Assembly (NCBI GenBank): GCA_045118155.1
Contig: JBGUXS010000078.1
Span: 443-64,442, forward strand
From: Alphaproteobacteria bacterium
GTDB lineage: Bacteria; Pseudomonadota; Alphaproteobacteria; CAAHEQ01; UBA3637
Direction: 5' to 3'
DNA length: 64,000 bases
Shown: positions 1 through 58,392 of the stretch, in pieces
How the letters are laid out: every line of letters begins with the position of its first letter
Numbering within the stretch: the first letter of the stretch is position 1
The notes under the pieces: model-generated
Databases searched by the model: none
What the model was told of the DNA's origin: nothing
What the model saw: only the letters and a program-made list of their open reading frames with translations
Program-made: the position numbers and the translations under genes

Positions 1-608
1 TTCTATTTTACAATCTTAAGTATTATTTGGAATTTCCTTTACAAACTTTATTCCTTTGGCAAGGGGGGATGTCTTTTCATGGGGGCCTGATAGGGGTTAT
101 CATCGCAACATTTTTATTTGCTAGGAAAAAACATATTCCAGTCCTAGCTTTGGGCGATATTTTATGTTGTGTTGCCCCGATTGGTTTATTTTTGGGGCGT
201 CTTGCTAATTTTGTAAACGCTGAACTATATGGGCGTATTACGACATCCGTTCCATGGGCAGTTATTTTTCCTGGGCAAACCCTTCCCCGCCATCCTAGTC
301 AAATTTACGAAGCTTTATGTGAAGGGTTCATTTTGTTCTGTGTTTTAAACAGCCTCTGGTGGTTTTCGGCAAAATACCGAGAAAAAAATGGATTTTTCAC
401 AGGGCTGTTTTTCTTGCTCTATGGTTTAATGCGTTTTGGATTAGAATTTTTCAGAGAGCCCGATGCCCATCTTGGATTTGTATTAGGACGATTAAGCATG
501 GGGCAAGTTCTTTGTATTCCTATGGTTATAGGGGGACTTTATTTGATACGTAACGCCTCAACCAAAGTCCAATTCAAGCGTCTGGTAAAAAGGGGAAAAA
601 ATGACTAA
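1..608 (+). CDS. lgt: Prolipoprotein diacylglyceryl transferase, 5' end cut by the window edge
   Basis: The frame is open back to nt 3. Motifs LFYN, WQGGMSFHGGLIG, GRLANFVNAELYGR and PRHPSQIYEA match the Lgt core. Confidence 0.9.
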   Translation, partial: LFYNLKYYLEFPLQTLFLWQGGMSFHGGLIGVIIATFLFARKKHIPVLALGDILCCVAPIGLFLGRLANFVNAELYGRITTSVPWAVIFPGQTLPRHPSQIYEALCEGFILFCVLNSLWWFSAKYREKNGFFTGLFFLLYGLMRFGLEFFREPDAHLGFVLGRLSMGQVLCIPMVIGGLYLIRNASTKVQFKRLVKRGKND

Positions 609-1188
609 CTTTCGTCGTCGTTATACTTGGATTCAAAATATCGGACGTTTACTTAAAAAGAAGCTAATTATCCCCCTGTGGCGTTCGCCACATCCCCCAG
701 AATACAAAGCTCTAGGGGTGGCTATTGGGTTAGGATGGGCCATGACCCCTTTAGTTGGAGTACAAATGTACCTAGTCTGGATGACATGGTTAATCATGAA
801 AAAAGTCTTTAACAAACCATTTTCTTTGGCTTTGGGATTAGCTTGGACGTGGGTAACCAATGTTTTTACAATGGTGCCCATTTATTACGTTTTTTATCTA
901 ACAGGGCGGTTAATGATGGGAAAGGGGCTAACCGAAGATCATTCTGTTAAACAACAAATTGCAGCAATTTTTTTAGGTCCTCAATCCTTTGTTCAAAAAT
1001 GGGGAGATTTTTTCAAGGCTTTAATGAAAGAATGGGGTATTACAATGATGATGGGGTGTATCCCTTTTATTATTGCGGCTCTACTTTTAGGGTATTATGT
1101 AACTCTTAGGTACGAATCCTTACGAGAACATCATCGTCAATTACGTCAGCAAAAAAGGGAACAAAATGGAACAACCAGAAAATTTTAA
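601..1188 (+). CDS. DUF2062-family membrane protein
   Basis: 195-aa ORF that overlaps the lgt stop. RSPHPPEYKALGVAIGLGWAMTPLVG and multiple TM segments are typical of DUF2062. Confidence 0.75.
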   Translation: MTNFRRRYTWIQNIGRLLKKKLIIPLWRSPHPPEYKALGVAIGLGWAMTPLVGVQMYLVWMTWLIMKKVFNKPFSLALGLAWTWVTNVFTMVPIYYVFYLTGRLMMGKGLTEDHSVKQQIAAIFLGPQSFVQKWGDFFKALMKEWGITMMMGCIPFIIAALLLGYYVTLRYESLREHHRQLRQQKREQNGTTRKF

Positions 1189-1804
1189 GGATTTATCCCA
1201 AATTACGGGTTATTTTTTAAATAAGGAAGAATCTTTGACTGGGGCAGAAGATTTAGCCTTGATGAAACAAGTACACGGGTCAACTGTTCTGGTCATTGAT
1301 AAAGCACCGGATCCGGAAAATCCCCCCATGGCAGATGGTTTTATTACACAAACACCGGGATTAAAATTAGCGGTAAAAACGGCTGATTGTATTCCTTTAC
1401 TTATTGCTGACCCTTTACAAAAAACCGTTGGTGCCTTTCATGTGGGATGGAAACCAGGCCTCTTGGGTATTGTAGAAAGTGCTATCCTTACTTTTCAAAA
1501 ATTGGGGAGTCAACCTCAACATTTGGTCGCCGCTTTAGGGCCTGCTCTAGGGAAGCCAAGCTTTCCCGTCAGCAAAGAAATGATGCAACTGTATCCCGAA
1601 CCAGAACGCATTTTTTTTGAACAAAAGGAAGAAGGTATCTTTTTTGACAATACCGCCTATATCATCTATCGTTTAAAACGGGCAGGAATCCAAAATATTT
1701 GGGCCAGTTCCACTAACACTTACCGAGATTTGACCTATCACAGTTTTCGCCGTGAAAATGGGGCCAAAGGGCGACAATATAGTATTATTTTTCTAAATAC
1801 TTAG
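1166..1804 (+). CDS. pgeF: Peptidoglycan editing factor PgeF / YfiH (DUF152, laccase-domain protein)
   Basis: Motifs HGSTVLVID, ADGFIT, KTADCIPLL and GAFHVGWKP match the YfiH catalytic His/Cys/His pattern. Confidence 0.85.
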   Translation: MEQPENFKDLSQITGYFLNKEESLTGAEDLALMKQVHGSTVLVIDKAPDPENPPMADGFITQTPGLKLAVKTADCIPLLIADPLQKTVGAFHVGWKPGLLGIVESAILTFQKLGSQPQHLVAALGPALGKPSFPVSKEMMQLYPEPERIFFEQKEEGIFFDNTAYIIYRLKRAGIQNIWASSTNTYRDLTYHSFRRENGAKGRQYSIIFLNT

Positions 1805-2142
1805 GGCATTTGATTTCGCATAAGGGCCAAAATGGCATCAAAATCATCATTTTCCGCAACTTGATTACGATGAGTTTTGTGACATGTTTGACATTGATAT
1901 AAAATATACATCTTCCCATTTTTTTGTTCCACACCAATAGGTTTTAATACTCCTTGACAAGGATTAGCCCTATCTCCCGGAGAAATATCAACGTGCTTAC
2001 TTGTCAGACATTTAGGACAATGATCGGTGTACCCATTTCCCTTCACAAATGTTCCACAGACACAACAAATAAAATCTTCTTGAGTTCGTTGAAAGCGCTT
2101 TACCATAAGAGGTATTTTAAGCGATTTATAGGTAAAATTCAA
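1801..2142 (-). CDS. RNHCP domain-containing zinc-ribbon protein
   Basis: Motifs CCVCG, HCPKCLTSKHVD, ANPCQG, YQCQTCHKTHRNQV. The start may instead be the internal Met at 2106. Confidence 0.75.
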   Translation of the reverse strand: MNFTYKSLKIPLMVKRFQRTQEDFICCVCGTFVKGNGYTDHCPKCLTSKHVDISPGDRANPCQGVLKPIGVEQKNGKMYILYQCQTCHKTHRNQVAENDDFDAILALMRNQMP

Positions 2143-2150
2143 TATTTTAC

Positions 2151-2179
2151 TAGAAAAAAGCTTTTATTACGTGTATAAT
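2151..2179 (+). promoter_or_regulatory. Candidate sigma70 promoter for the orf380-virD4 operon (TAGAAA-17-TATAAT)
   Basis: A perfect TATAAT at 2174-2179 lies 20 nt upstream of the 2199 ATG. A -35-like TAGAAA sits at 2151-2156 with a 17-bp spacer. Confidence 0.45.
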
Positions 2180-2198
2180 ATATCCGAAAGGGTTTGGT

Positions 2199-3341
2199 AT
2201 GCAGAAAAAACGCACCTTTATTATTGGACTTATTTGGGGGCTAATCTTCTTTTGGTGGCTGCACAATTTTTTTTACTTGAATTGGTATTTTCGGTTTTAC
2301 AGTCCCAAAGCTTGGGTTTATTTACTTCATGAATTCAAGTACGGTTGGCGGGTACGGGCCGTTTCCGATTGGATCTTTATTTTTACCCTTATTTTCGCAT
2401 TACCTCTGTTTTTCTGGGGGTGGTATCTATGCTTAAAAATCAAATGGTTGGCTCTTTTTAAATGGATAAAAAAACAATTTTTAAAACTTACCAACAAAAA
2501 ATCAACTGTTGTAAAAAAACAAATGAAGTTAGCCGCTAAAAAAAGTGTGCAAAAAGAACGCCCCCCTGCCCTTGCAACCCCCAAAGTAACTAGTCCCGAA
2601 AAGAAAATGCAAAAAATGCCATCTTCTGCCATCAAAAAAGAAGAAATCGATTTAGATTTTTCTGCTAAAGAAGAATTTTTGAAAGAAGAAAACATTCAAA
2701 CGGCACCTCCTGCCAAAGAACATCGGGCCCCGGATCCACCAAAAGGGGGACCTTCTTTCCTATTTGAAGATGATGATATCCCGCAACAAAACAATGATGT
2801 TCGGGCCGACACACTGTTGTCTGAAATAAAAATGCCAGAACGAGAACGAACACAAGAAAATATCCCAGATATTATTCACGCGCATGGCTTTAAGCCCATC
2901 ACGGCCATTGTGCATCCAGATATTTCTTTTGCGGCCGTTTCTTCAGATACCCTTTTGGTTGCTTTTGTGGATGAAGAACCAGGAGATTGGCTAGCCGATG
3001 AAGAAGATTTTGAAGGGGAAGACCCCTTGTGGTTTTCAGAAAGTTTTCATCGGGTTTCCCCAGTTTTTAAACTATTAAAAGTTGCTAAAAAAATCAGGGC
3101 TCAGTTAGAAAATCAAGGACTTTCTCATAAAGTAATTCCTTACTTAATTGAAAAAATGGGAAATATTATTAACGTAGAAGATATGCAAGAAACGTGGAAA
3201 GAACTGGGGGTCATTGTCTGCCGAACAGATGTTGGGGGGGATGAAACATTACCCACAGTAGAAGCTTCTTTCCCGCAAGCAAAAGATGTTGCAGAAGCTG
3301 CTGATTTAGATATAATAAAAGAAATTTTAAAAAAGTTATAG
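2199..3341 (+). CDS. Hypothetical membrane protein: N-terminal TM segments, K/E/P-rich linker, acidic C-terminal globular domain
   Basis: 380-aa ORF ending 10 nt upstream of virD4. It has W/F-rich TM helices and a low-complexity linker. The C-terminal block (HGFKPITAIVHPDISFAAVSSDTLLVAFVDEEPGDW) loosely resembles a NERD/PD-(D/E)xK-type core, and I assign no family with confidence. Confidence 0.65.
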   Translation: MQKKRTFIIGLIWGLIFFWWLHNFFYLNWYFRFYSPKAWVYLLHEFKYGWRVRAVSDWIFIFTLIFALPLFFWGWYLCLKIKWLALFKWIKKQFLKLTNKKSTVVKKQMKLAAKKSVQKERPPALATPKVTSPEKKMQKMPSSAIKKEEIDLDFSAKEEFLKEENIQTAPPAKEHRAPDPPKGGPSFLFEDDDIPQQNNDVRADTLLSEIKMPERERTQENIPDIIHAHGFKPITAIVHPDISFAAVSSDTLLVAFVDEEPGDWLADEEDFEGEDPLWFSESFHRVSPVFKLLKVAKKIRAQLENQGLSHKVIPYLIEKMGNIINVEDMQETWKELGVIVCRTDVGGDETLPTVEASFPQAKDVAEAADLDIIKEILKKL

Positions 3342-3350
3342 GGGGAAAAG

Positions 3351-5522
3351 TTGGGCGCCTCTGACGCGATGTACACCGAACGTAAAAAATATACGTACTA
3401 TGTGGCAGCTATCGTAGTACTGGCTCTTTTTGTATCTTGGATAATGCTGTTAATTACAATTCCTTTACAAGCTTTTATCCGTCAAGGGTTAGATATTGAA
3501 GCTTGGAATTACAGTGTTTCCTTTTGGACACATGCTTGGCATCCAAAAGTCATTTTTCAAGTCCTCAATAGTTGGTTTGATTCCCTAAAAACGTTAAAAA
3601 ATCCCCATTGGACTTTATATTTACCCTTTTTATCCTTTTTTATTGGCTTTATCGTTTTAGTGATAGGGCTAAAAAAGAATCCCTTTGAATACACACCAAA
3701 TATTTTTGGGAATGGACGTTTAGCCACTTATGCTGATGTCAAAAAAATGAAATTATTTACTGGGTTCTGCATCGTTTTGGGACGTTTTAAAGGCAAGTTA
3801 TTAAAAATGCCAGAAACCTTAGCGGCCTTAGTTGTTGCGCCACCGGGGACTGGTAAAACCGCTGGGGTGGTGATTCCCACCATTTTTGAATCCCCAGGAT
3901 TGAGTATTATTGTAAACGACCCTAAACCAGAATTATGTTATACCACAACCGGATATCGGGCACAACAAGGGCCTGTGTTCGTTATTAACTGGGGGGCCGA
4001 TGATGAACCAGAAAAAGGGATTTTCTTCCCTAGTTGGAATCCACTTTCTGCTTCATGCTTACCAGCACCAGGTCCCGCCAGAGATATGTACATAGACTCT
4101 ATGGTGGCTATTTTGGTAGAAGTTAATGAAAAAGATCCTCACTGGGGGAAAACTGGGCGAAATGCTATGTCTGGTTTTTTGAACTTTATCGCCAGTAAAT
4201 GTGAACGGGCACTTGCTAACGATTACTTTACTTCACGTTTAATGGACGATTTATTTGATGATGAAGACGCGGCCGTTTTAGAAACATACTATGCGGATAT
4301 GAACGATCCTGATACAGGGTCTGCTTTACAGGCATTAAAAAATGGGTCTATGACACGGGAATCTTACGTCCCTATCGGTACATGGGCGGGGCTACCTTCT
4401 GTTTGGCAAGGAAAAGAACCTTGTATTGCTATGATTTTGGACTGGCTGACGGAAATGCAAATGAAAATCAATGCCGATATTAAACGCCGTATGGATGAAG
4501 GGGATCAAATGGCGGCCATGGCAGACCCCATGCGGGATCTATTGGAAAGTGCCATCAGTGAAGCAGCCCGCTATGGCTATGCCAGACGTTCTGTCACAGA
4601 ACTCAATCAATTATCCGCCACACCGGATAAGGAACGGGGGTCTATTTTATCCACGGCCCTTTCTGGGATCAGTATTTTTAAAAACTCGGCAGTGCGTTCT
4701 AGAACTAAGTTCAGTGACATTACTTTCCGTGATTTACGTGGGATGCGTGATCCTATTACAGGGGAACAAAAACCTATTTCGGTTTATCTATCCGTTAACC
4801 AGGTAGATGCCCAAGCCTTAAATGTCATTACTGGGATTTTTGTTGAATTGATGAGCAGTTTCTTAATCGCGAACCCCCCAAATTTTGTTGGGGCAGGCGG
4901 GAAAAAGGCGGGACCATTTCCTGTTTTATTTGTGCTTGACGAGTTTCCACAAATGCCAAAATTGGATGCTGTGAAAAACGGGCCTGCCGTAGGGCGGGGA
5001 CAGAAAGTTTCTTATTTGCTCATTGGGCAGGATCTTGGACAGATTTCTGGTAAATACGGGAAAGATGATTTGGAAACAATCATTACAACAACAGCCGCTA
5101 AAGTCATTCTTTCTCAAAACAACGAACAAACCGCTGAACGTTTTACAAAAATGATTGGGACTAAAACGATTCAAGTAACAAGTTCTAGCCGAACTGAAGG
5201 GATTTCCAACCAAAATAACCCCTTTGCGGCAAACGTAAGCCGTTCCTACCAAAGCTCAAACGTGGTCCAAGTATCTGATATGATGAGCTTAGATATGCTT
5301 AAACAATACGTTTTATTCCAAGGATATCTAAACCATCCTATCTTAGCGGATGCCCCTCGTTATTACTTAGATAAAGTCATGCAAAAGAAAGCGGCCATTC
5401 CCCCTTCCCCATTTGTTCCGTATTGGATTGTAGCGCAACGGGAAGATACCGATTTAGAAACATTAAAAGCTTTGATGCAAGAGGAATTAGCAGATTTGGA
5501 TATTATCATAGAGGATGAATAA
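3351..5522 (+). CDS. virD4: Type IV secretion system coupling protein VirD4/TraG
   Basis: N-terminal TM helices, Walker A VVAPPGTGKTAGVVIPT, Walker B-like FVLDEFPQMPKL and the TraG/VirD4 family pattern. A TTG start at 3351 follows AGGGGGA; an alternative ATG lies at 3369. Confidence 0.9.
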   Translation: MGASDAMYTERKKYTYYVAAIVVLALFVSWIMLLITIPLQAFIRQGLDIEAWNYSVSFWTHAWHPKVIFQVLNSWFDSLKTLKNPHWTLYLPFLSFFIGFIVLVIGLKKNPFEYTPNIFGNGRLATYADVKKMKLFTGFCIVLGRFKGKLLKMPETLAALVVAPPGTGKTAGVVIPTIFESPGLSIIVNDPKPELCYTTTGYRAQQGPVFVINWGADDEPEKGIFFPSWNPLSASCLPAPGPARDMYIDSMVAILVEVNEKDPHWGKTGRNAMSGFLNFIASKCERALANDYFTSRLMDDLFDDEDAAVLETYYADMNDPDTGSALQALKNGSMTRESYVPIGTWAGLPSVWQGKEPCIAMILDWLTEMQMKINADIKRRMDEGDQMAAMADPMRDLLESAISEAARYGYARRSVTELNQLSATPDKERGSILSTALSGISIFKNSAVRSRTKFSDITFRDLRGMRDPITGEQKPISVYLSVNQVDAQALNVITGIFVELMSSFLIANPPNFVGAGGKKAGPFPVLFVLDEFPQMPKLDAVKNGPAVGRGQKVSYLLIGQDLGQISGKYGKDDLETIITTTAAKVILSQNNEQTAERFTKMIGTKTIQVTSSSRTEGISNQNNPFAANVSRSYQSSNVVQVSDMMSLDMLKQYVLFQGYLNHPILADAPRYYLDKVMQKKAAIPPSPFVPYWIVAQREDTDLETLKALMQEELADLDIIIEDE

Positions 5523-6064
5523 TGACGGAAGATTTTAAGTTTGAAGATGGTCTAGGACAGGATTATTGGATTCGTGAATTTCATAAAATTCCCTTTCCAG
5601 GAATGGAATTGTTTGAAGTAACTTTTTTTAGACGTATAGAAGGGGCCTATGTGGATAAACATCAGCGCTTTAGAGAAATGGCCGTTGATTTTCTAAAAGA
5701 TTTAGGGAAAGAGGAAGAAGAACTTTATGCTTTTGAATTTTCTGAGGCCGAAGTCGCTTTGATTAAAAAAGGTCGTCTACCAGAAAATTATACTGTCCAT
5801 TTAAAATATCCTTTAGAATACGGTTGTGCATTGATCCCAGAACAATTTGTTTTGATGCCTATTGCCCCTTATTATCGGGATATTAATACTTATATCTTCA
5901 GACAACTTATAACCGATGAAGGAATTAAAAAGCCCCATCACCTTTATGTTCCCACACCAACAGGGCGTATTTATAAACCTTATTCTGGGGATGCAAGTGG
6001 CAGCGGTGGGAAAAGTAATACTTCCCAAATGGCGGCTATGTTTAACCAGGGGCGGGGGCGTTAA
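5522..6064 (+). CDS. Hypothetical 180-aa protein; candidate T4SS substrate or toxin with a degenerate HNH-like motif
   Basis: Its start overlaps the virD4 stop (TAATG) and follows a GAGGA RBS. The segment YTVHLKYPLEYGCALIPEQFVLMP parallels the colicin-DNase/HNH pattern H-H-x3-P-x4-GG-x5-N-x5-P with substitutions. The tail is Gly/Ser-rich and ends in basic GRGR. Confidence 0.6.
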   Translation: MTEDFKFEDGLGQDYWIREFHKIPFPGMELFEVTFFRRIEGAYVDKHQRFREMAVDFLKDLGKEEEELYAFEFSEAEVALIKKGRLPENYTVHLKYPLEYGCALIPEQFVLMPIAPYYRDINTYIFRQLITDEGIKKPHHLYVPTPTGRIYKPYSGDASGSGGKSNTSQMAAMFNQGRGR

Positions 6065-6065
6065 T

Positions 6066-6524
6066 ATGAAATTAATACATGTTGTTTTAAAAGCTATTTA
6101 TAAAGATGCCGCTGTTGTTTTTAATCCTGTGGCTTTGACTGATGTTCAAAAGGCCTCTTTTGAAATTGTAAAAAATAAAGGGATTAAAATTCCTAATGAT
6201 TATGCTGCCTTTTTAACAGAAGTTGATGGATTATCCTGGAATGGATTGTATCTTTTTTCCTTAAATGAAAAGGAACGTCAAGATGGCGCTTTTGTGCACC
6301 CTGGCATTCTACAAACATACCATAAGGGCTTAAAAAATCCGATTTTTAAAAACAGGCTTTTATTAGGATACGGCCCTGAAGAAATCATTACATATCATGC
6401 GGGAAAAAAAGAATATCAAATCCTAAGTCAATATGATTACAGAATCCTAGTACGGCTTCCCCGCTTCTTTGATGTACTGTATCACTATACCCATGCTTTA
6501 TTTGAGGATGCCCCTAAGGACTAG
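6066..6524 (+). CDS. SUKH / SMI1-KNR4-like protein (candidate immunity protein)
   Basis: The ATG at 6066 lies 2 nt after the orf180 stop and follows a G-rich SD. GIKIPNDYAAFLTEVDGLSWNGLYLFSL and LLLGYGPEEIITYHAGKKEYQIL fit the SMI1_KNR4 pattern (lP.dY..FL...nG, then fg.d....i.yd). The longer track ORF starting at 5916 overlaps orf180 and was not used. Confidence 0.6.
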   Translation: MKLIHVVLKAIYKDAAVVFNPVALTDVQKASFEIVKNKGIKIPNDYAAFLTEVDGLSWNGLYLFSLNEKERQDGAFVHPGILQTYHKGLKNPIFKNRLLLGYGPEEIITYHAGKKEYQILSQYDYRILVRLPRFFDVLYHYTHALFEDAPKD

Positions 6525-6895
6525 GACAAATCTTGCTTAACATGTGGCGTTTGCAAAAGTTCTTCAATGTGATCGGCCACTTCTAAGGAAGTATCTTTTT
6601 TAAAGATTAAATCTGGCACAATTCTTAACCGGATTTCTTTTCCAATGCGGTAACGAAAAAGGCCTTTATGTGCATTTAACAACTTCACTTGTTCATTCAC
6701 ATCAATTCCCCCGATACCATTTACAAAAACACTTGCGTAACTCAAATCTGGGGAAATGTTAGCTTGTGTGATTTGTAAAGCCCTTGGTTTTAAACCTGAA
6801 ATAAACAAATCCTCTTTAACCAACATCTGTCCAATTAGACGCCGAATGCTTTCTGAAACCCGAAGTTGCCGTTGTGATTGTTCTGACGTTTTCAT
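6521..6895 (-). CDS. rbfA: Ribosome-binding factor A
   Basis: SQRQLRVSESIRRLIGQML and ITQANISPDLSYASVFV are RbfA signatures. The Met at 6895 is preferred; the ORF is open to 6931. Confidence 0.9.
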   Translation of the reverse strand: MKTSEQSQRQLRVSESIRRLIGQMLVKEDLFISGLKPRALQITQANISPDLSYASVFVNGIGGIDVNEQVKLLNAHKGLFRYRIGKEIRLRIVPDLIFKKDTSLEVADHIEELLQTPHVKQDLS

Positions 6896-6939
6896 AGAAG
6901 CTATTATACCTTTTTTTCTTGTTCCTTTCAAGAATCTTT

Positions 6940-7680
6940 TTAGAACAAGTATCTAAGCCCCACCAAAACCGTCTGACTTTTATTTTCAACAGAAATCGGA
7001 GTTTTAGAAACTTTATCTGTCAATGAAATACGGCCTGGATCCATATAACGGTACCCTACATCTAAATCCAAATCCCGACCTAAATGTGTCGTGACACCGG
7101 CGGCTACATTCCAAGCCATTTTATACTTCCATGTTTCATGATTATAATGGTTCGTTCCTTTGTCTGATTGAACACGAATACGGGATTGGCTGACCCCGAT
7201 TCCTCCCCCAATATAAGGGCTAAAAGTATAAGAAGGGAACAAATCATAATAGGCATTCAAAAAATAAGTATTCATTTTAATATTGCTTGCCCGAACCCGT
7301 GTTCCATCATCCAACTTAAATACCGCATCCCTTTTCCCATGAGAATTATAGCTACCTTCAAGTTCCGTCCGCACATTTCCAAGCATTGTTTTGACTTGAA
7401 CCCCCAAAGCCCCGCTTAATTCCATCAGCTCATCCTTTTTTTTCTGAGATTGCCCCCCAATAGCGGGTTCAAAATCCCGTCCTTTATAGCCGATTTTTGC
7501 CTCAACATAAACCCGTTGACTAGGTTCCAAAGAATTATCTTTCAGACTCTCTTCCATATATTTGTTCTTATCATCCATCACGTAAAAATCAGTATCTCCC
7601 GCATAAGAGGCATAGTAGACACCAGCTTGTGCGTAATAACTTGACAAAACAAAAAAAGTAAAAATAAGCTTCTTCATCAT
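6940..7680 (-). CDS. Outer-membrane beta-barrel protein (OMP_b-brl / Omp25-like family)
   Basis: Signal peptide MMKKLIFTFFVLSSYYAQA, alternating amphipathic beta strands and a C-terminal LVGLRYLF with terminal Phe. Confidence 0.75.
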   Translation of the reverse strand: MMKKLIFTFFVLSSYYAQAGVYYASYAGDTDFYVMDDKNKYMEESLKDNSLEPSQRVYVEAKIGYKGRDFEPAIGGQSQKKKDELMELSGALGVQVKTMLGNVRTELEGSYNSHGKRDAVFKLDDGTRVRASNIKMNTYFLNAYYDLFPSYTFSPYIGGGIGVSQSRIRVQSDKGTNHYNHETWKYKMAWNVAAGVTTHLGRDLDLDVGYRYMDPGRISLTDKVSKTPISVENKSQTVLVGLRYLF

Positions 7681-7698
7681 TTCATCCTCCTAAACCAA

Positions 7699-9510
7699 TT
7701 AGTCCCGTGTTACTTCGGGAAGGGTAAAATTATTTTCATCAAAAACACAGTATGTTTCAACCCGGGCGCTTAACGTATTGTCCCCCAAAGTTCCCCCTGT
7801 AAAATTCGTGGAACCCGCCCCCGTAACATAGCCAACTTCTATCCCCCATACTCTGGCAATATCCGCTTCGGTTTCTGCCTTTGCTTTATGAACATTATTA
7901 ACAGCCACAGCCACCGTATAGCGCGACACATTTGCATTTGTGACATTTGTGGTAGATCCATTTGTTACACCTTCAAAACTGTTCAAAACGTCCTTTCCGG
8001 TTGTTCGGATCGGGGTAACCACCAAAGCGGCCTTATATCCGGCCGGGCATGCTGGCGTTGTCACATTTGCCCGCAAGCAATTGTTCGTATATCCACTACA
8101 GTTCCCTAAATTAGCTTCTGTCGTTAATTCGGTAATAGATTTTGAAACATAATTCGGCAAGATATCACTTAATCTCGCCCCACCACGAGAAGCCAACTTA
8201 ACATCATTCATCACAGACGTATAAGCTGGATCTACCTGATAATGATCATACGTTTCTGATTCATTAGCAGCTTGAGCATCCACAAATTCAACGGATGAAT
8301 CAATACCTTTTGCAGACACGACTGCATTTTCTACTAACTGACCATCTGCATCATAAGCATTCAGCGTAACTTTCCCCTTGGAAGATCCATCTGTGGCTTC
8401 TTCAGCTTCGGCCTTTAAGACATCACGTCCGGCACTATCTCTGGTAATAATCTGCCCATTAGCATTGACAATAACCCGACGTTTGCCCGTGGCATCATAA
8501 ACGGTCACTGCCCGCTTGTCATTATCCACAGGATCAGTGGAAATAACGGCCGTTGAAACAAAGGCTTGAATTGTTTCCCCATCGTTCACGGGATCATCCA
8601 TAGAAACCGCTTGACGTCCTACATGCAAATCATTGCGGACATAAACATTCCCCGGGGTTCCTGCCAATCCTTCATCCGTTCCGTTTTCAAGATGTTCTGC
8701 CCCTACCCAAAATAAGGGGGCACATTCTTCCCCTGCATCCAAAATTGTATAACCGGTTGCATCTTTTCTAAAGCAATTCGTATTTCCTTCGCCAATAGAA
8801 AAATAGCTCCAAGCATGCAAGTTTTTGAAAGCGGCTTCATCTTCTAAAGAAGAAAAGAGTGCCCCTTCATCAAATCCAGTAAATGCAACATAAGACGGGC
8901 TTACCACAGGTTCCATCATCAAAGATGCCCCTTCTAATTCCCAAGTTCCCATGGTGCCTACAAAATTATCCCCTTGGACGATACCCCCATCAGCCCCAAT
9001 CAAGGCAGCGATACTAGCCGCCCGCTTTAAATTCCATGTTCCTTGCGGCAGTGCCGATGCTTTAGGTAAGATAACTCCATAAAAAGAGGTCCCAACTTTT
9101 GCCCCTTCCGTATTTTCTAAATTTTTCCCAAAAAGGTAAAAATTGTATTTTTCAGCCGTACTTGATGTCAAAACATCCCCTGTGTACGTGTTATAGGTCA
9201 CTGGTAAGTATGTTGCCACATTTTTCCACAACGTGTTATATGAACAATTGGAAGTTTCTGTTCCAGACAATGCACAAACCCCACCACCGGCTGTGGCTAA
9301 TTCTTCAAGTTGCCTATGTTGCGTTTGGATAAAAGAGGAAAAAGCTTCCTTCATCGTACGCATTTCGGTCGCTACATTAACATTGGCTAGTTCCCGATTA
9401 CGTTGTGCCACTTGCCTATACAAAACAGGTCCCAACACCGCCAAGATCCCTAAGACGGCAATAGCTTCTATCATAATAGACCCAGATTGGGTTTTTACAG
9501 CTTTTTTCAT
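7699..9510 (-). CDS. Large (603 aa) protein with a prepilin/TadE-like class III signal N-terminus
   Basis: The N-terminus MKKAVKTQSG|SIMIEAIAVLGILAVLGPVLY has Gly at -1, Glu at +5 and a hydrophobic helix. The remainder is T/N/G/A/V-rich with Cys pairs near the C-terminus. A consensus promoter lies upstream. Confidence 0.7.
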   Translation of the reverse strand: MKKAVKTQSGSIMIEAIAVLGILAVLGPVLYRQVAQRNRELANVNVATEMRTMKEAFSSFIQTQHRQLEELATAGGGVCALSGTETSNCSYNTLWKNVATYLPVTYNTYTGDVLTSSTAEKYNFYLFGKNLENTEGAKVGTSFYGVILPKASALPQGTWNLKRAASIAALIGADGGIVQGDNFVGTMGTWELEGASLMMEPVVSPSYVAFTGFDEGALFSSLEDEAAFKNLHAWSYFSIGEGNTNCFRKDATGYTILDAGEECAPLFWVGAEHLENGTDEGLAGTPGNVYVRNDLHVGRQAVSMDDPVNDGETIQAFVSTAVISTDPVDNDKRAVTVYDATGKRRVIVNANGQIITRDSAGRDVLKAEAEEATDGSSKGKVTLNAYDADGQLVENAVVSAKGIDSSVEFVDAQAANESETYDHYQVDPAYTSVMNDVKLASRGGARLSDILPNYVSKSITELTTEANLGNCSGYTNNCLRANVTTPACPAGYKAALVVTPIRTTGKDVLNSFEGVTNGSTTNVTNANVSRYTVAVAVNNVHKAKAETEADIARVWGIEVGYVTGAGSTNFTGGTLGDNTLSARVETYCVFDENNFTLPEVTRD

Positions 9511-14668: not shown

Positions 14669-15059
14669 GGGCCACCAATGAACGTACCCGTTCTACCATA
14701 GAAAAAAAACCATTCCGACGCGTGGGGGATAAATGATCTTCTAGACCTAAATCCTTAAAAATCCGTTCTATATCCAATTCCCGAATAAAAGCAGCTGTTT
14801 GCCCATTAATTAGGGAAAGTAAAATAGCCTCTAACCCCCGTACAATAAAGGCATCGCTATCGGCAACAAAAAAGAACTTATCCCCTTTTTGCTGAACAGT
14901 AATCCACACTTGTGATTGGCATCCTTGGACCTTATGGGCTTCTGTTTTATCTTCTTCTGGCATCGGGGGTAAACTCTGTCCTAATTCAATTAGGTATTGG
15001 TATTTTTCTTCCCAATCCGTAAATAAAGAAAAATTATCAATTAATTCCTGTTCTGTCAT
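14661..15059 (-). CDS. sufE: SufE-like cysteine desulfuration protein
   Basis: WEEKYQYLIELG and VQGCQSQVWI, the conserved Cys motif of SufE/CsdE. Confidence 0.85.
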   Translation of the reverse strand: MTEQELIDNFSLFTDWEEKYQYLIELGQSLPPMPEEDKTEAHKVQGCQSQVWITVQQKGDKFFFVADSDAFIVRGLEAILLSLINGQTAAFIRELDIERIFKDLGLEDHLSPTRRNGFFSMVERVRSLVAHA

Positions 15060-16462
15060 TCAATGTTTTTTAATCCTTCTAGTGTTAATTTTACCTTTAT
15101 TATATCAACACTGCGATTTTTTTCATCAAAAATACGCTTATCCTCTTGTAAAAAAGGACGTAAGTCTTTTAATAATCCAGCATCTTCAGTAGCTTGACAC
15201 GCTGAATTTTGTAAAAATTCTTTTTCTTGAGGGGTTGTTTGAACCGCCACATTTTGTAAATAGGTTTGCATCAAAGTACATTGTTCTTCATCAATCGGTT
15301 TGGCTGGGGGAGAAATAGCATCAAAATTCCGAATAAGAAATTCAATATCTCCAACGGGTTTTTCCTTTTCAATCTGTCCTGTAAAATGCACATCTATAAC
15401 CGCTTGTACACTTTCCAAACTTCCTTTAACATCCAAATCAGCCCCTTTTAGCAGCCCCCAAGAAAAATCTTTAGAAAGCAATTGTTCTACTAATATTTCA
15501 CGATCAAACTTTTTGGCTTTGATAACTAATTTTCCCTTTTCTGGGATAAACCCTTTGGTCGGGACATTCCCTATACACGCGAATGTTAGGTTAATTTCAG
15601 CTTCCTCCCCCTTAAATTCTACTTGCCCTTCTACCTGCGTTAAAATAATCTTTCTGGGGTAAACGGGAAATACTAAATCCGCCTGTGGTATTTCAAATTC
15701 AATTTTTCCTGTATCCGCCAATAACCATGCATTATGTAAAATAGGGGCTAATCCCTGAAACCGTGCTTTTTCCGTTAAAGAAGCCACCGTCCCTTGCACT
15801 TCTTTCCCCGTAAATGTCAACCCCAAAAGGGAGGCTTTTTGTTCAATAACGGGAACATGCCCCAAAAAAGAAAACATATATTTGCCGTTTGCTTCATCCA
15901 CTTTCAATTGCCATTCGGGGCGCGTCAGGTGTACATGGCTAGCACTCCACCGATCTTCGGCAATCAAATCCCAATACGGGTGCCATTTAAATTCATTTTG
16001 CCACTTTTCAACATAGAAAAAATTGGGTTCAAATACCGCGGTTGCAAAACCTTCTAGTTGTTCTTTTGGGGGAAAGTGTCCCCGATATAACGTCGTCCCT
16101 TCTAATTGCCCATCTGGGGTCAATAATACCCCTTGTGTAGGGAAAGTCATTTCATCCGGTGTTTCTTTAAGTGGCATCCAAACGGTCAGAACTTTTTTCT
16201 TCAAGTCTAAATCATTCTTCACAGATGCTTCTGGCAATATTAAACTTGCTTGATCGGCTCGTTGTTGCAAAACAGCCCCCGAAATCCCCAATGCCTTTAA
16301 CTTCGCCCTTAGGGCCTTAGCCAAAGTATCATGATCCGGTCGTGTCAACACAGTGGATGGGGTTACGTAAGACATAGCATTAGGGAAAAAACGCGTTAAC
16401 ACCGCGCCTTGCAAAGCAACTGCCCCTACAAGAGCCAGACGTCCCAATAATTTTGCTAACAT
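15056..16462 (-). CDS. Hypothetical exported/periplasmic protein (468 aa)
   Basis: N-terminal signal/anchor MLAKLLGRLALVGAVALQGAV. No recognisable catalytic motif. ATGA overlap with sufE. Confidence 0.6.
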   Translation of the reverse strand: MLAKLLGRLALVGAVALQGAVLTRFFPNAMSYVTPSTVLTRPDHDTLAKALRAKLKALGISGAVLQQRADQASLILPEASVKNDLDLKKKVLTVWMPLKETPDEMTFPTQGVLLTPDGQLEGTTLYRGHFPPKEQLEGFATAVFEPNFFYVEKWQNEFKWHPYWDLIAEDRWSASHVHLTRPEWQLKVDEANGKYMFSFLGHVPVIEQKASLLGLTFTGKEVQGTVASLTEKARFQGLAPILHNAWLLADTGKIEFEIPQADLVFPVYPRKIILTQVEGQVEFKGEEAEINLTFACIGNVPTKGFIPEKGKLVIKAKKFDREILVEQLLSKDFSWGLLKGADLDVKGSLESVQAVIDVHFTGQIEKEKPVGDIEFLIRNFDAISPPAKPIDEEQCTLMQTYLQNVAVQTTPQEKEFLQNSACQATEDAGLLKDLRPFLQEDKRIFDEKNRSVDIIKVKLTLEGLKNIE

Positions 16463-32655: not shown

Positions 32656-32831
32656 CGTAGTTTTTCCTCACAGCAACACTTTTCTTCAACAAACCATATA
32701 CGATCTTCAAATTCGGATTTTTTCCCCTTATTGAATTGGCTAACAGGACGAAAATACCCCATAACCCGTGTCCAACATTCCACCGCTTGACGTTCATTAG
32801 AAAATTTTTCTAAAATTTGGTTATCTGTCAT
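32643..32831 (-). CDS. Glycyl-radical peptide of anaerobic ribonucleotide reductase, encoded as a separate 62-aa ORF
   Basis: TRVMGYFRPVSQFNKGKKSEFEDR matches the NrdD C-terminal glycyl-radical motif (RxxGY...N.GK..E...R). Its ATG overlaps the stop of the 689-aa nrdD ORF (ATGA). Confidence 0.7.
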   Translation of the reverse strand: MTDNQILEKFSNERQAVECWTRVMGYFRPVSQFNKGKKSEFEDRIWFVEEKCCCEEKLRQAV

Positions 32832-34897
32832 GCTTTGTTCTCCTTTTCTGCAAGTTCTTGACGTTTTTTTTCAATGAGTTCCGCATCACACTTTGGGCAG
32901 AACTTGTGTTCCCCACTAATATACCCATGCTTGGGGCAAATAGAATAGACAGGGGTAATAGAAACATAAGGAAGATGATAATTTTCTAATACCCGTCTAA
33001 TAAGTGATTTACAAACACTTGCTGAAGAAATCCGTTCATTCATATACAGGTGCAAAACCGTTCCCCCTGTATACTGTGTTTGCAATTCATCTTGATAATC
33101 CAACGCTTTAAACGGATCATCTGTGAAGTTCTGTGGTAATTGAGAAGAGTTTGTATAATAGGGGGCCTCTTTCTTTCCTGCTTGAATAATACCAGGATAG
33201 CGTTTTTGATCTTCTTTGGCAAAACGATATGTTGTCCCTTCAGCTGGCGTTGCTTCCAAATTGTACATATTTCCTGTTTCTGCTTGGAAATCCAGCATTT
33301 TTTCCCGAATATGTGTTAAAAATTCTTTAGCCATCGCCCGCCCTTTTTCCGAAGCAATGTATTCTTCATCATTAGTAAAGTTCCGAATCATTTCATTAAT
33401 ACCATTAACCCCAATCGTGGAAAAATGATTTCGGAATGTTCCTAAATATCGCCGTGTATAAGGATACAACCCCCGATCCATGTGCATTGAAATGGTTTTA
33501 CGTTTAATTTCTAAGGAAGTCTTCGCTAATTCCAGTAATTCATCCAAACGTTTATACAATTCCTCTTTCTTCCCCTTATACAGGTATCCCAAACGGGCAC
33601 AGTTAATTGTAACAACCCCAATAGACCCCGTTTGTTCTGCTGAACCAAATAAACCACCACCTCGTTTTTTCAATTCCGTCAAATCCAACCGTAACCGACA
33701 ACACATTGAACGAATATCTGAAGGCTTCATATCAGAACTAACATAGTTTGAAAAATAGGGTAATCCATATTTAGCCGTCATTTCAAATAACAATTCCGTA
33801 TTTTCAGAATCCCATGGGAATTCATTTGTAATATTGTATGTCGGGATAGGGAAAGTAAACGGCCGCCCTTTGGCATCCCCACTTCCCATAACTTCTAAAT
33901 AAGCCCTATTAATCATATCCATTTCTTTTTGCAGATCACCATAAACAAAATCTTGTTCCACCCCCCCAATGATAGGGTGCCGATTCTTCAAATCTTCAGG
34001 GCAATTCCAATCAAAAGTTAAGTTCGTAAAGGGTGTCTGTGTCCCCCAACGCGATGGTACATTCAAGTTAAAGATGAAGGATTGCATCGCTTGTTTTACT
34101 TCTTCATAAGGTAATTTTTCAATTCGTATAAATGGTGCTAAGTACGTATCCACAGAAGAAAACGCCTGTGCCCCAGCCCATTCATTCTGCAAAGTCCCCA
34201 AGAAATTAATCATCTGGCTAAACGCAGAAACAAGGTGTTTTGGCGGTTTAGATTCTGTCTTATTGGGAACCCCATTAAAACCTTCTTCTAATAAAACCCT
34301 TAAGGACCACCCTGCACAATACCCACTCAACATATCCAAATCATGAATATGATAATCCCCATTTCGGTGAGCTTCCCCAATTTCTGGCGTATACACGTGG
34401 CTCAACCAATAATTGGCCACCACCTTTCCTGCCGTATTTAAAATCAATCCCCCTAAGGAATATCCTTGATTAGCATTTGCGTTCACCCGCCAATCTGACC
34501 GATCTAAATATTCATTAATAGAAGCCACCGCATCAATAACCGTTTTCTTATCATTCCGCATTTTTCCGCGTTGTTCACGGTACACGATATAAGCCCGGGC
34601 AGTTTTGTAATAATTAGAGGAAATTAAAACCTGTTCAACCACATCTTGAATTTGCTCAATATTAGGATAAACCCCGAAAGCAAACCGATGCTTTAAAACC
34701 TTAATAACTTGTCTTGTTAATAACCACGCTTCATCTTGACCGAATTCAGCCGTTGCTTCCCCAGCTTTCAAAATAGCAACCATAATTTTAGTCACATCAA
34801 ACGGATACTGTTGCCCATCCCGTTTAATTACATAGCTCAACGGACTAATATCAATGGTTACATTTAGCGGCTGGGCTCCTGTCAAAACTTGCAACAT
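32828..34897 (-). CDS. nrdD: Anaerobic (class III) ribonucleoside-triphosphate reductase, large part lacking the glycyl-radical segment
   Basis: ATP-cone (VIKRDGQQYPFDVTKI), catalytic core (SMCCRLRLD, GSIGVVTINCARLGY, NLEATPAEG) and Zn-ribbon CPKHGYISGEHKFCPKCD. It then stops after a K/E-rich tail. Confidence 0.9.
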   Translation of the reverse strand: MLQVLTGAQPLNVTIDISPLSYVIKRDGQQYPFDVTKIMVAILKAGEATAEFGQDEAWLLTRQVIKVLKHRFAFGVYPNIEQIQDVVEQVLISSNYYKTARAYIVYREQRGKMRNDKKTVIDAVASINEYLDRSDWRVNANANQGYSLGGLILNTAGKVVANYWLSHVYTPEIGEAHRNGDYHIHDLDMLSGYCAGWSLRVLLEEGFNGVPNKTESKPPKHLVSAFSQMINFLGTLQNEWAGAQAFSSVDTYLAPFIRIEKLPYEEVKQAMQSFIFNLNVPSRWGTQTPFTNLTFDWNCPEDLKNRHPIIGGVEQDFVYGDLQKEMDMINRAYLEVMGSGDAKGRPFTFPIPTYNITNEFPWDSENTELLFEMTAKYGLPYFSNYVSSDMKPSDIRSMCCRLRLDLTELKKRGGGLFGSAEQTGSIGVVTINCARLGYLYKGKKEELYKRLDELLELAKTSLEIKRKTISMHMDRGLYPYTRRYLGTFRNHFSTIGVNGINEMIRNFTNDEEYIASEKGRAMAKEFLTHIREKMLDFQAETGNMYNLEATPAEGTTYRFAKEDQKRYPGIIQAGKKEAPYYTNSSQLPQNFTDDPFKALDYQDELQTQYTGGTVLHLYMNERISSASVCKSLIRRVLENYHLPYVSITPVYSICPKHGYISGEHKFCPKCDAELIEKKRQELAEKENKA

Positions 34898-53441: not shown

Positions 53442-53517
53442 GTTTTTTTCATAAAAGCATTTTCTGCCTTTACTTTTCATCTCTTTTTGATTATGCTTGT
53501 TTCTACAAGGGGGTAAT

Positions 53518-53805
53518 ATGCGGGAACCTATTTTAAAAGCGGTCAGTATGCCGGCGCGTATTTTATGGGCGCCGTCGGTTCCGGCGTTGTTAAACATGGT
53601 TTGTCAATTACCTTTCATGTTGTTCTATGCGGGACAAGGGGGCAACCCTTTGCTATTCATGGGAACTATCATCGGGGTTCATGCCTTAATTGCTCTTTAT
53701 GCCGCGAAAGAACCTCATTTATCTAATATGTTCAAAGCCCAAGGTCCTTTCTTTAAGAAAAGTTCACAAATGTATACCTCATCAGGAAGAAAATACGCCC
53801 CATGA
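53518..53805 (+). CDS. virB3: Type IV secretion system protein VirB3
   Basis: ~96 aa. ILKAVSMPARILWAPSVPALLNM (L.ka.tRP...GvP pattern) and two TM helices. ATGA overlap with virB4. The track ORF starts earlier, at 53497. Confidence 0.8.
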   Translation: MREPILKAVSMPARILWAPSVPALLNMVCQLPFMLFYAGQGGNPLLFMGTIIGVHALIALYAAKEPHLSNMFKAQGPFFKKSSQMYTSSGRKYAP

Positions 53806-57226: not shown

Positions 57227-57322
57227 GAAAAAAAGTAAAAAAGCGTTTTTTTTAAATTTTAATCACATTTTATGCTTGCTTTTCCCACAAAAAAAAGGTT
57301 GAATGATGCGCAGAGGAGAATT

Positions 57323-58063
57323 ATGAAAAAAATACTGTTGTGTCTTGGTCTTATACTATCTCTTCCCCTGGGGGCAGAGGAGTTGTTTTGGACATTTGAT
57401 AACACGGGAAAAGAATCCCCTGTTCCCCCTGATTGTGATGGGGTTTTTAACGAGGAATTAGGACGTTTTGTTTTGCCAACCCCAGAAGAATTATATACGG
57501 CGGGGAATGCCTATTTCTTTAAAAGGGAAGATGAACAACGTAACGCAGGGTATTGTTTTGTGGCGGCTGCCTTACAGGGGCATTTGAACGCTCAGTACAC
57601 ACTCGCTCAGCTTTACAGCAAGGGGATGGTTTTGCCTAAGGATGATTTAGCCGCCTATAAATGGGCTTTTATTGCGGGGTTGCAAGGACATAAAGCCGCT
57701 GAACGACTAGCGGTTTCTTTGGAACAATATCTAACAACTGAAGACATCATGAAGGCCACAGATGAAGCTCAGGAATTTTTAAAAACGTTGCCGACGAAAA
57801 CACAACAAACATTGGCGGGATTAGATGCTGAATTAGAAAGTAAGCAGGCCTATCTTGATCAAATTTATGCTGATATTGATAACGAATTGAACATTACTTT
57901 ACCCGAAGTTAAAATAGATGATTCTTTAAATCCTATTTTCCCGGATGAAGAAGAAACAGTGATTTCCAAAAAAGTCCCTACCGAAAAAAAAGCTGCAAAA
58001 ACAAAACGGGAATCTGTTTTAAAGCCTCTTGATAACATCTTTACTCAAAAAGATCGGCCATGA
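57323..58063 (+). CDS. Exported Sel1-repeat (TPR-like) protein
   Basis: Signal peptide MKKILLCLGLILSLPLGA. Sel1 units AQYTLAQLYSKGMVLPKDDLAAYKWAFIAGLQGH. The track ORF starts at 57272. Confidence 0.75.
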   Translation: MKKILLCLGLILSLPLGAEELFWTFDNTGKESPVPPDCDGVFNEELGRFVLPTPEELYTAGNAYFFKREDEQRNAGYCFVAAALQGHLNAQYTLAQLYSKGMVLPKDDLAAYKWAFIAGLQGHKAAERLAVSLEQYLTTEDIMKATDEAQEFLKTLPTKTQQTLAGLDAELESKQAYLDQIYADIDNELNITLPEVKIDDSLNPIFPDEEETVISKKVPTEKKAAKTKRESVLKPLDNIFTQKDRP

Positions 58064-58392
58064 AGCGTTTTTTATTTACCTTATGTTTTTTTGTGCTTTC
58101 AAACGTATATGCTGATTTTTTACCTTTCACACAAGATATCCCTTTAATGCCCAATTTAGTTCTTCAAGAAGATTATTTATCTTTTGATACTCCCTCGGGG
58201 CAAATACTTAATTTATCGGCTAAAACACCCCTTCCTTGTCAAAAAGTTTTTGATTTTTATTCCCAGACTTTACCCGCGTTGGGGTGGCAAGAAGAAAAAA
58301 AAGGATTTTTTAAAAGAAATGAAGATACTTTGTCCCTTTCCTGCAAAGCATCAACGGTCACTTTTGAAATAACATTTGAAAATCCTTCTTAA
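58060..58392 (+). CDS. Small exported hypothetical protein (110 aa)
   Basis: Signal peptide MKRFLFTLCFFVLSNVYA. ATGA overlap with the Sel1-repeat gene. Confidence 0.6.
   Translation: MKRFLFTLCFFVLSNVYADFLPFTQDIPLMPNLVLQEDYLSFDTPSGQILNLSAKTPLPCQKVFDFYSQTLPALGWQEEKKGFFKRNEDTLSLSCKASTVTFEITFENPS

Follow-up and report, generated by a model that had tools for sequence, protein, structure and literature searches.

A chromosomal virD4 cassette with a NERD-like membrane partner and an HNH toxin/YrhA-type gene pair in uncultured gut Alphaproteobacteria

Introduction

A 64-kb stretch of DNA from an uncultured member of the Alphaproteobacteria (contig JBGUXS010000078.1, positions 443 to 64,442; "the window" refers to this whole stretch) carries, in the midst of housekeeping genes, a gene for VirD4, the coupling protein of VirB/D4-type type IV secretion systems (T4SS). 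The gene is the second in a tightly packed cassette of four, being preceded by a gene for a membrane protein of 380 amino acids (aa), named orf380, and followed by two small genes, orf180 (gene 3) and gene 4. The question raised by this locus is which channel such a coupling protein would serve and what its three companions would contribute. With modest confidence, we lean towards the interpretation that the cassette is the coupling-protein/substrate-receptor island of a chromosomal VirB/D4 T4SS, to which a cargo module consisting of an HNH toxin and its immunity protein has been attached. This view is built on homology of the encoded proteins and on the occurrence of their genes in related genomes.

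The Cassette and Its Distribution

The four genes were located in the window as follows.

2199..3341, forward strand: orf380, 380 aa, first gene of the cassette
3351..5522, forward strand: VirD4/TraG-type coupling protein, 723 aa, with a TTG start and an in-frame ATG at 3369
5522..6064, forward strand: orf180 (gene 3), 180 aa, with an HNH (His-Me finger) toxin-type domain
6066..6524, forward strand: YrhA-family (SUKH-related) protein (gene 4), 152 aa

The spacing between them is 9, -1, and +1 nucleotides (nt). Comparative genomics shows that these genes are linked far beyond the window. Two sets of loci were compared, one selected through orf380 (the 80 best GTDB loci and five others, in which the coupling protein was sought by tblastn) and one of 80 metagenome loci picked through the coupling protein. 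In the former, virD4 is found directly 3' of orf380 in 83/83 loci having downstream sequence; in the latter, orf380 lies immediately 5' of virD4 in 61/61 loci having upstream room. The co-occurrence of the two genes, which the first-pass annotation had suggested as a check, is thus seen from both directions. All four genes occur in the same order in 70 of the 78 orf380-selected loci with enough room, the median gaps being 11, 4.5, and 2 nt. Since the flanking genes vary from locus to locus, the cassette genes evidently stay with one another as a unit. Genes 3 and 4 are absent, even by profile search, from about 21 of 54 VirD4-selected loci (~40%), where housekeeping genes come after virD4. orf380 and virD4 are, therefore, the constant core of the cassette and the other two genes a frequent but dispensable addition, as would be expected of cargo.

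Relatives of orf380 number more than 500 in the protein collection, and 386 GTDB species genomes contain a homolog, almost all of these genomes being labelled as uncultured Alphaproteobacteria; the sources are human, ruminant, and other animal guts. Across this clade, orf380, orf180, and gene 4 are 24-52% identical, compared with 56-71% for VirD4. Beside the closest plasmid-borne virD4 genes, no relative of orf380, orf180, or the YrhA-like gene was found.

The Coupling Protein

By homology and by its intact motifs, the 723-aa protein is the hexameric coupling ATPase VirD4, as the first-pass annotation had stated. It matches PF02534 (E=1.2e-54) and PF12696 (E=8e-23); the scores with PF02534, PF12696, and PF10412 are 186.4, 81.2, and 66.4 bits, the respective gathering cut-offs being 20.1, 22, and 20.5. 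Two hydrophobic N-terminal segments (residues 13-44 and 86-109) represent two transmembrane (TM) segments, and the Walker A (APPGTGKT) and Walker B (FVLDEF) motifs are kept across the clade, in which 248 of the 723 alignment columns are at least 95% conserved. The named NCBIfam VirD4/TraG models give at best 146 bits (cut-off 250) and 128 bits (cut-off 728). As the protein stays far under the cut-off of every such model that it matches, it would represent a distinct subfamily. PDB sequence searches returned no match. The nearest plasmid coupling proteins, from megaplasmids of Erythrobacter aureus and Microvirga, are 31-33% identical over 75-97% of the length, and their genes end canonical virB8-virB9-virB10-virB11-virD4 clusters. 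Relative to these, the protein contains an insert of ~55-60 aa (residues ~286-345), which its own clade conserves well. The C-terminal tail is acidic, with a median net charge of -5. In PADLOC, the ATPase matches mad8 weakly (E=2e-6); as this is the only PADLOC signal, assignment to a known defence system was rejected. In four related loci (L020, L021, L044, and L048), a 145-aa open reading frame (ORF) resembling the N-terminal membrane domain of VirD4 is situated between orf380 and virD4.

The Membrane Partner orf380

Judged from database searches, orf380 is a new, previously unannotated family; the window protein has no match in Pfam, NCBIfam, PADLOC, or PHROG and none in a PDB sequence search. 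The AlphaFold2 (AF2) model (mean pLDDT 80) predicts four N-terminal helices, two of them clearly hydrophobic, in a membrane domain comprising residues 1-114. This is followed by a disordered linker rich in Lys, Pro, and Glu (residues 115-199; pLDDT <50), the length of which ranges from 28 to 173 residues across the family, and by an acidic alpha/beta domain that is modelled with confidence (about residues 215-380). For this C-terminal domain, a fold search points to a distant likeness to NERD and PD-(D/E)xK proteins, with a restriction-endonuclease-like alpha-beta-beta-beta-alpha-beta core. Weak matches to Pfam NERD (PF08378) are obtained with 9/30 orf380 relatives (best E 4e-4) and none with the window protein. 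The first-pass annotation had described orf380, a candidate there for a previously undescribed coupling-complex subunit or substrate receptor, as a protein with TM helices, a K/E/P-rich linker, and an acidic C-terminal domain loosely resembling these folds, and the model, the hydrophobicity profile, and the fold search agree with it on each of these points.

The NERD-like cytoplasmic domain is probably non-catalytic. The catalytic D...(D/E)xK pattern is not conserved in the family, the column of the first Asp being occupied by D, S, N, or G; D258 is invariant, the following positions read D-x-[E/Q/I], and a conserved Lys is missing. The most conserved feature is a near-invariant insert of ~30 residues, GDWLADEE.F..EDPLWFSES.HR.SPV, with a median net charge of -7, that of the entire C-terminal domain being -13. 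DotM, the Legionella protein with which orf380 might be compared, was absent among the listed fold matches, and no sequence or fold similarity to it was found, so that the relation of the two is one of position and architecture only.

Some variation around orf380 deserves mention. A divergent subgroup (L071, L072, L076-L080, L082, L084, and L085) possesses two tandem orf380 paralogs, preceded by Lys-rich low-complexity proteins with Gly/Arg-rich C-termini, which are possible further T4SS substrates. In L073, L075, and L081, a stand-alone orf380 membrane domain of about 155 aa precedes orf380. In the window, the C-termini of orf380 (3288-3341, …EAADLDIIKEILKKL) and VirD4 (5454-5522, …EELADLDIIIEDE) both contain ADLDII; this may be due to chance, since neither tail is conserved in the relatives.

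The HNH Toxin-Type Protein and Its YrhA-Like Neighbour

By homology, genes 3 and 4 are a pair corresponding to yhhZ-yrhA of Escherichia coli, combining an HNH-toxin domain with a YrhA protein. The orf180 profile aligns with residues 257-386 of E. coli YhhZ (hhalign probability 97.8%, E=6.8e-13, 126 columns) and that of gene 4 with E. coli YrhA (hhalign probability 95.5%, E=1.4e-8). The NCBIfam model of the YrhA family, NF038335, is matched by 17/17 gene 4 relatives (best E 1.5e-21) and by the window protein with E=7e-13 and 48.7 bits, just below the cut-off of 55; matches of gene 4 to the Pfam SUKH families are weak. Window orf180 has no match in Pfam, NCBIfam, PADLOC, or PHROGs, and PDB sequence searches with the orf180 and YrhA-like profiles gave insignificant matches only. 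In E. coli K-12, yhhZ, annotated as "putative endonuclease" and containing an N-terminal Hcp domain, overlaps the downstream yrhA by 4 nt; orf180 and gene 4 are separated by 1 nt in the window and by a median of 2 nt across 70 loci.

The first-pass annotation had left both genes without an assignment, and this toxin/immunity-type identity changed the reading of the operon. YhhZ has been classified as a nuclease of His-Me finger group 32 from a polymorphic toxin system (PMC5714182), and the HNH-DNase Hcp-ET1 is an antibacterial effector of type VI secretion (the T6SS) and is paired with a cognate immunity protein (reviewed in PMC6730261). Immunity to HNH toxins is conferred by SUKH proteins, which may in addition steer toxins towards export machinery (PMC3113570). 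Gene 4 is predicted to encode the cognate immunity or chaperone protein of orf180. A toxin described in a preprint as Tox-REHH was also considered and discarded, being unrelated and without link to a T4SS.

orf180 lacks the Hcp domain and has, compared with YhhZ, ~37 additional C-terminal residues, which are disordered. This tail has a median net charge of +4 and terminates with Gly-Arg in 60/70 family members; that of the window protein ends with Gly-Arg yet is neutral (2 K/R, 2 D/E). Of the H..N..H..H signature, H93 is kept in 70/70 family members and N108, H118, and H122 each in 69/70. In the window protein, N, H, and H are replaced by Q108, Y118, and N122; its nearest relatives, 64% and 56% identical, retain them. 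With three of the four signature residues lost, window orf180 belongs to the family but is probably catalytically inactive.

Elsewhere in the clade, orf180 carries long Pro/Gln-rich N-terminal extensions, namely, in the loci with tandem orf380 paralogs. In L073 (6577-7473) and L075 (6140-7075), a membrane protein of ~300 aa is encoded after virD4 in place of the HNH/YrhA pair. A resemblance of its C-terminal part to SNase, noticed by eye, was dropped, as neither a PDB search nor BLASTP against SNase found anything.

A Scattered Type IV Secretion System

The first-pass annotation had regarded the virD4 gene as an orphan without virB8-11 neighbours. The latter half of this statement holds: tblastn searches of the window and related loci with queries from alphaproteobacterial plasmids and from locus L016 (E<1e-3/1e-4) revealed no virB8-11 homologs in the 64-kb window. 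The former half does not, for a two-gene island of the same kind of system lies between gatCAB and acpS/rpoZ (53497-56237).

53497..53805, forward strand: virB3-like ORF, assigned from its location and from 43% identity to the corresponding ORF of L043
53802..56237, forward strand: virB4, T4SS ATPase, 811 aa

The virB3-like ORF overlaps the start of virB4 and has no Pfam match. VirB4 is recognized by homology, with 40% identity to a plasmid VirB4 (E=5e-106), 64% to that of L043, and a Pfam CagE_TrbE_VirB domain. Other loci of the clade complete the picture. In L043, the same virB3-like/virB4 pair, likewise flanked by housekeeping genes, is found 8 kb upstream of the cassette. L016 has virB9, virB10, and virB11 upstream of its cassette, with only a DnaJ-domain gene (reverse strand) and an RHH_4 gene in between. 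In L172 and L173, virB4 and a small upstream ORF (98-127 aa), which occupies the place of the virB3-like ORF of the window, form an isolated pair amid housekeeping genes. VirB4 is 66-95% identical among the best 120 matches. In two cases, orf380 and virB4 homologs share the prefix of their NCBI locus tags (IJO11_06710 with IJO11_07700; PHX68_03070 with PHX68_04080), and therefore come from the same metagenome-assembled genome (MAG).

From the virB3-like/virB4 pair of the window, virB9-11 of L016, and the two shared MAGs, it follows that VirD4 is not an orphan at the genome level, and a VirB-type channel is, on homology, encoded in the same genome as the cassette. As virB4 islands lie apart amid housekeeping genes, the T4SS is scattered around the chromosome, with the cassette as one of its islands. 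T4SS genes were thus found in the window, L016, L043, and the two MAGs, and not the situation that would have spoken against the first-pass annotation, namely, orf380 homologs mainly in genomes devoid of a T4SS. Uncultured Alphaproteobacteria of gut and rumen that possess this scattered chromosomal VirB/D4 system amount to at least 386 species. The VirB10 of L016 (867-7715) is a giant of 2282 aa, in which 16 beta-flower repeats precede the TrbI domain.

Proposed Pathway and Alternative Explanations

According to the favoured scenario, the T4SS would be inherited vertically, with its genes scattered over the chromosome, and would have been conserved throughout a large clade of uncultured Alphaproteobacteria from gut and rumen. 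orf380 would be its clade-specific inner-membrane partner, always encoded just upstream of VirD4 as judged by synteny, and the acidic NERD-like domain would dock on VirD4 and/or bind the basic tails of substrates. The HNH DNase toxin domain of gene 3 and the YrhA/SUKH immunity protein of gene 4 would constitute the cargo module. The orf180 tail ending with Gly-Arg would act as a type IV secretion signal replacing the Hcp carrier; orf180 would be handed over to VirD4 and injected into neighbouring cells, with the YrhA-like protein protecting the producer. In the species of the window, the toxin would probably be inactive, three of the four signature residues being gone. The homologies to toxin and immunity genes suggest injection of a DNA-cutting toxin into other cells by this system, and complementarity of the median net charges (+4 for the orf180 tail, -13 for the C-terminal domain of orf380, -5 for the VirD4 tail) is in line with it. 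Export by means of the tail, binding of VirD4 or of tails by orf380, and targeting of other cells are what we infer from these features.

Several points weigh against this scenario. The clade has one vertically inherited ortholog of the toxin (30-44% identity), in contrast to the polymorphic and shuffled repertoires that are typical of interbacterial weapons. Although N108, H118, and H122 are gone from window orf180, neither this protein nor its partner has been discarded, and retention of such a degenerate protein fits a non-catalytic role at least equally well as that of a toxin. The orf180 tail is short (~37 aa) and unlike known T4SS signal domains such as XVIPCD, for which no dedicated search was made, and the tail of the window protein is itself neutral. 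Only the virB3-like gene and virB4 were seen in the 64 kb of this genome, virB2, virB6, and virB8-11 not being found there. Finally, the role of orf380 is deduced from synteny, conservation, and charge. A more far-reaching version is put forward as a tentative and rather doubtful proposal: orf380 would be a catalytically dead NERD-fold co-receptor that hands Gly-Arg-tailed effectors to VirD4, and the T4SS would be a DNase-injecting contact weapon. The invariant acidic insert would capture the basic tails, making orf380 a functional analogue of DotM with the opposite charge logic in a VirB/D4 system, and the weapon would have arisen when a T6SS-type HNH toxin/YrhA cassette moved onto a type IV secretion signal.

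The main rival explanation, unlikely in our estimation and still to be taken seriously, is that all four proteins form one structural coupling complex in which orf180 and the YrhA-like protein would be non-secreted adaptors or chaperones recruiting other effectors, in the way that IcmS, IcmW, and LvgA recruit effectors on DotL. The fixed gene order in 70/78 orf380-selected loci, the overlapping start and stop codons, and the persistence of window orf180 in spite of its lost HNH residues would be well accounted for; the terminal Gly-Arg could serve as a docking element, the acidic C-terminal tail of VirD4 resembles those of other adaptor-binding coupling proteins, and SUKH proteins can bind parts of translocons, an example being Syd, which binds SecY (PMC3113570). 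What this explanation does not accommodate is the HNH signature, preserved in 69-70 of 70 homologs and hence indicative of selection for catalysis, nor the homology of the two genes, as a pair, to a T6SS-borne toxin module. Moreover, ~40% of the VirD4-selected loci keep orf380-virD4 without either gene, which would be unexpected for core subunits.

Three further readings are each less likely than that of an adaptor complex. Transfer of DNA, with VirD4 as the pump and with nicking and processing by the NERD-like orf380 and the HNH protein orf180 in place of a relaxase, is improbable. It would explain two nuclease folds beside a DNA-translocase-type ATPase, a relaxase gene not being seen in the flanks, an RHH-domain gene upstream in about 40% of loci that recalls relaxosome accessory proteins, and the location of the nearest plasmid relatives near topB, Rad52, and primase-like genes. 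However, orf380 lacks a conserved "PD" aspartate and has no motif lysine, many genomes do without the HNH/YrhA pair, orf180 has as its closest homolog a toxin domain that comes with an immunity-type partner gene, and the context is one of housekeeping genes in which oriT or mobile-element features were not seen. Very little probability is given to an autonomous VirD4 machine that would work without a VirB channel, as a membrane pump for DNA or protein or as a defence system. The physical separation of the cassette from other T4SS genes in most genomes and the weak mad8 match of the ATPase in PADLOC (E=2e-6) would fit this idea; it is contradicted by virB4 in the same window and the same MAGs, equally well conserved (66-95% among the best 120 matches), by virB9-10-11 retained beside the cassette of L016, by closest relatives that are bona fide VirD4 proteins of virB clusters, and by orf380, orf180, and the YrhA-like protein matching no defence-system model. 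Hardly credible, in the end, is a functionless, decaying remnant of an integrated conjugative element, even if virD4 is isolated from other T4SS genes, the toxin copy of the window is degenerate, and phage-like genes lie near the cassette in a few related loci. The conservation pattern argues strongly against such decay: the ORFs are intact in at least 70 species, the ATPase motifs are conserved with VirD4 being 56-71% identical, and orf380 homologs occur in 386 species genomes. In addition, the GC content of the cassette matches that of its surroundings, and integrase, relaxase, or repeats were not noted.

Genomic Surroundings and Promoter

As described in the first-pass annotation, the four packed genes of one strand are placed between pgeF and an RNHCP gene on one side and rbfA on the other, which was confirmed from the ORFs and their flanks. 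On the 5' side are lgt, a DUF2062 gene, and pgeF, together with the RNHCP gene on the opposite strand; on the 3' side, rbfA, an outer-membrane beta-barrel gene, and a pilin-like gene follow, all on the opposite strand. The remaining genes of the window are of housekeeping type (pnp, truB, rne, bamA, lpxD/fabZ/lpxA, mreB, gatAB, dnaE), and the cassette has the same GC content as its surroundings. Around the cassette, no oriT or mobile-element features were seen; an integrase, a relaxase, or repeats were not noted, nor was a relaxase gene seen in the flanks.

A single promoter shared by all four genes had been proposed. One candidate is located in the sole intergenic gap upstream of the operon:

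2151..2179, forward strand: sigma-70-like promoter candidate TAGAAA-17-TATAAT, with 10/12 consensus matches

The site is indeed present; promoter-like sites are not enriched in the region, where 7 were found and 12.9 would be expected from shuffled sequence, and for this reason the candidate is plausible but carries little weight.

Further genes in the window and in related loci were noted. An anaerobic ribonucleotide reductase gene (NrdD; 32828-34897, reverse strand) and the sources of all related MAGs are alike in keeping with an anaerobic organism of the gut. The pilin-like gene (7699-9510, reverse strand) codes for a very large protein of 603 aa with a prepilin-type N-terminus (QSG/SIMIEAIAVLGIL), a weak ComGG-like match, and no other family. 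ORFs without Pfam match are found at 15056-16462 (reverse strand, 468 aa), 57272-58063 (263 aa), and 58060-58392 (110 aa), the latter two between rpoZ and dnaE, just 3' of the virB4 island. In about 40/86 related loci, for example, L016 (8742-9702), a J-domain gene on the opposite strand and an RHH_4 gene on the same strand are situated just 5' of orf380; neither gene is present anywhere in the 64 kb of the window, and the RHH_4 protein could be a regulator of the operon. L001, L002, L003, and L061 contain (roughly at 1-8750) genes for a T7-like terminase, nozzle, capsid, and portal together with an S24 peptidase, less than 10 kb upstream of the cassette; these are absent from the window and could belong to a prophage or an element resembling a gene transfer agent.

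Significance

The component superfamilies and T4SS-delivered nucleases are already known. What is new is the invariable association of a VirD4 lineage with a NERD-fold membrane protein, the linkage of a toxin-immunity cassette of T6SS type to virD4, and the high degree of fragmentation of a chromosomal T4SS that is conserved in a large clade of uncultured gut Alphaproteobacteria; a published description of this virD4-orf380 pairing, of the attached toxin cassette, or of the fragmented gut T4SS was not found, and searches of the literature for RF32 or CAG-239 with secretion systems, or for YrhA with immunity, yielded nothing useful. Substrate recognition by VirB/D4-type coupling proteins is poorly understood beyond a few model systems, and orf380, which in hundreds of species never parts from VirD4, offers itself as a concrete candidate for a new receptor subunit. 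That a T6SS-type cassette is found at virD4 suggests a movement of toxin cassettes between secretion systems in which the delivery tag is exchanged. The conserved T4SS may serve these common but uncultured Alphaproteobacteria of gut and rumen as a means against bacteria in their vicinity or host-associated eukaryotes; if true, this would be a first clue to the lifestyle of the lineage, and, should the combined proposal of co-receptor and contact weapon apply, the first killing T4SS of such kind outside the Xanthomonadales-type systems.

Comparison with Known Systems

Summarizing, the cassette combines traits of several known systems. With VirD4/TraG of plasmid-borne (P-type) VirB/D4 systems, the coupling protein shares the Pfam families, the two N-terminal TM segments, and the Walker A and B motifs; in contrast to these, it is detached from virB8-11, contains the clade-specific insert of ~55-60 aa, is always preceded by orf380, and is often followed by the HNH/YrhA pair, neither of which is found beside the plasmid genes. 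The rvh (Rickettsiales vir homolog) system is a chromosomal, apparently vertically inherited VirB/D4 system distributed over several islands amid housekeeping genes; its virD4 is the last gene of a virB8-9-10-11-D4 cluster, and several copies of virB6 come after virB3-B4. The division of chromosomal VirB/D4 genes into islands among housekeeping genes is similar here, whereas the virB3-like gene and virB4 stand alone and virD4 resides in its own operon with new partners. The rvh arrangement was not found: virB4 is followed by acpS and rpoZ in the window and by housekeeping genes in L172 and L173, and virB8-11 are not present in the window. The labels of the relatives go no further than uncultured Alphaproteobacteria of gut or rumen.

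For orf380, the closest parallel is DotM (IcmP) of Legionella, which is encoded directly upstream of the coupling protein DotL (IcmO) and consists of N-terminal TM helices and a cytoplasmic C-terminal domain. Size, architecture, upstream gene position, and the proposed role as signal receptor are similar. From NERD (PF08378) and PD-(D/E)xK proteins, orf380 is distinguished by the first Asp, which is not conserved, by the absent Lys, and by the family-specific acidic insert of ~30 residues.

Concerning the proposed cargo, a precedent comes from the VirB/D4 system of Lysobacter, in which the HNH DNase effector LtdD is bound by VirD4 through its C-terminus and killing depends on the DNase (PMC13600162, PMC11253643). 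Such X-T4SS of the Xanthomonadales (X-Tfe/X-Tfi) are likewise VirB/D4 systems whose VirD4 recognizes the C-terminal part of toxins, including an HNH DNase; there, the recognition domain is XVIPCD and the effectors are many and diverse, whereas the present system would possess one conserved small toxin with a ~37-aa tail, a YrhA/SUKH protein, and the extra membrane partner orf380, and belongs to a different bacterial class. With the T6SS toxins E. coli YhhZ-YrhA and Hcp-ET1, the likeness extends to both genes, which are homologous, in the same order, and overlapping or abutting (4-nt overlap versus 1-nt gap). The YhhZ toxin is mounted on an N-terminal Hcp domain, whereas orf180 is devoid of Hcp, has the additional C-terminal tail, and is encoded directly after virD4.

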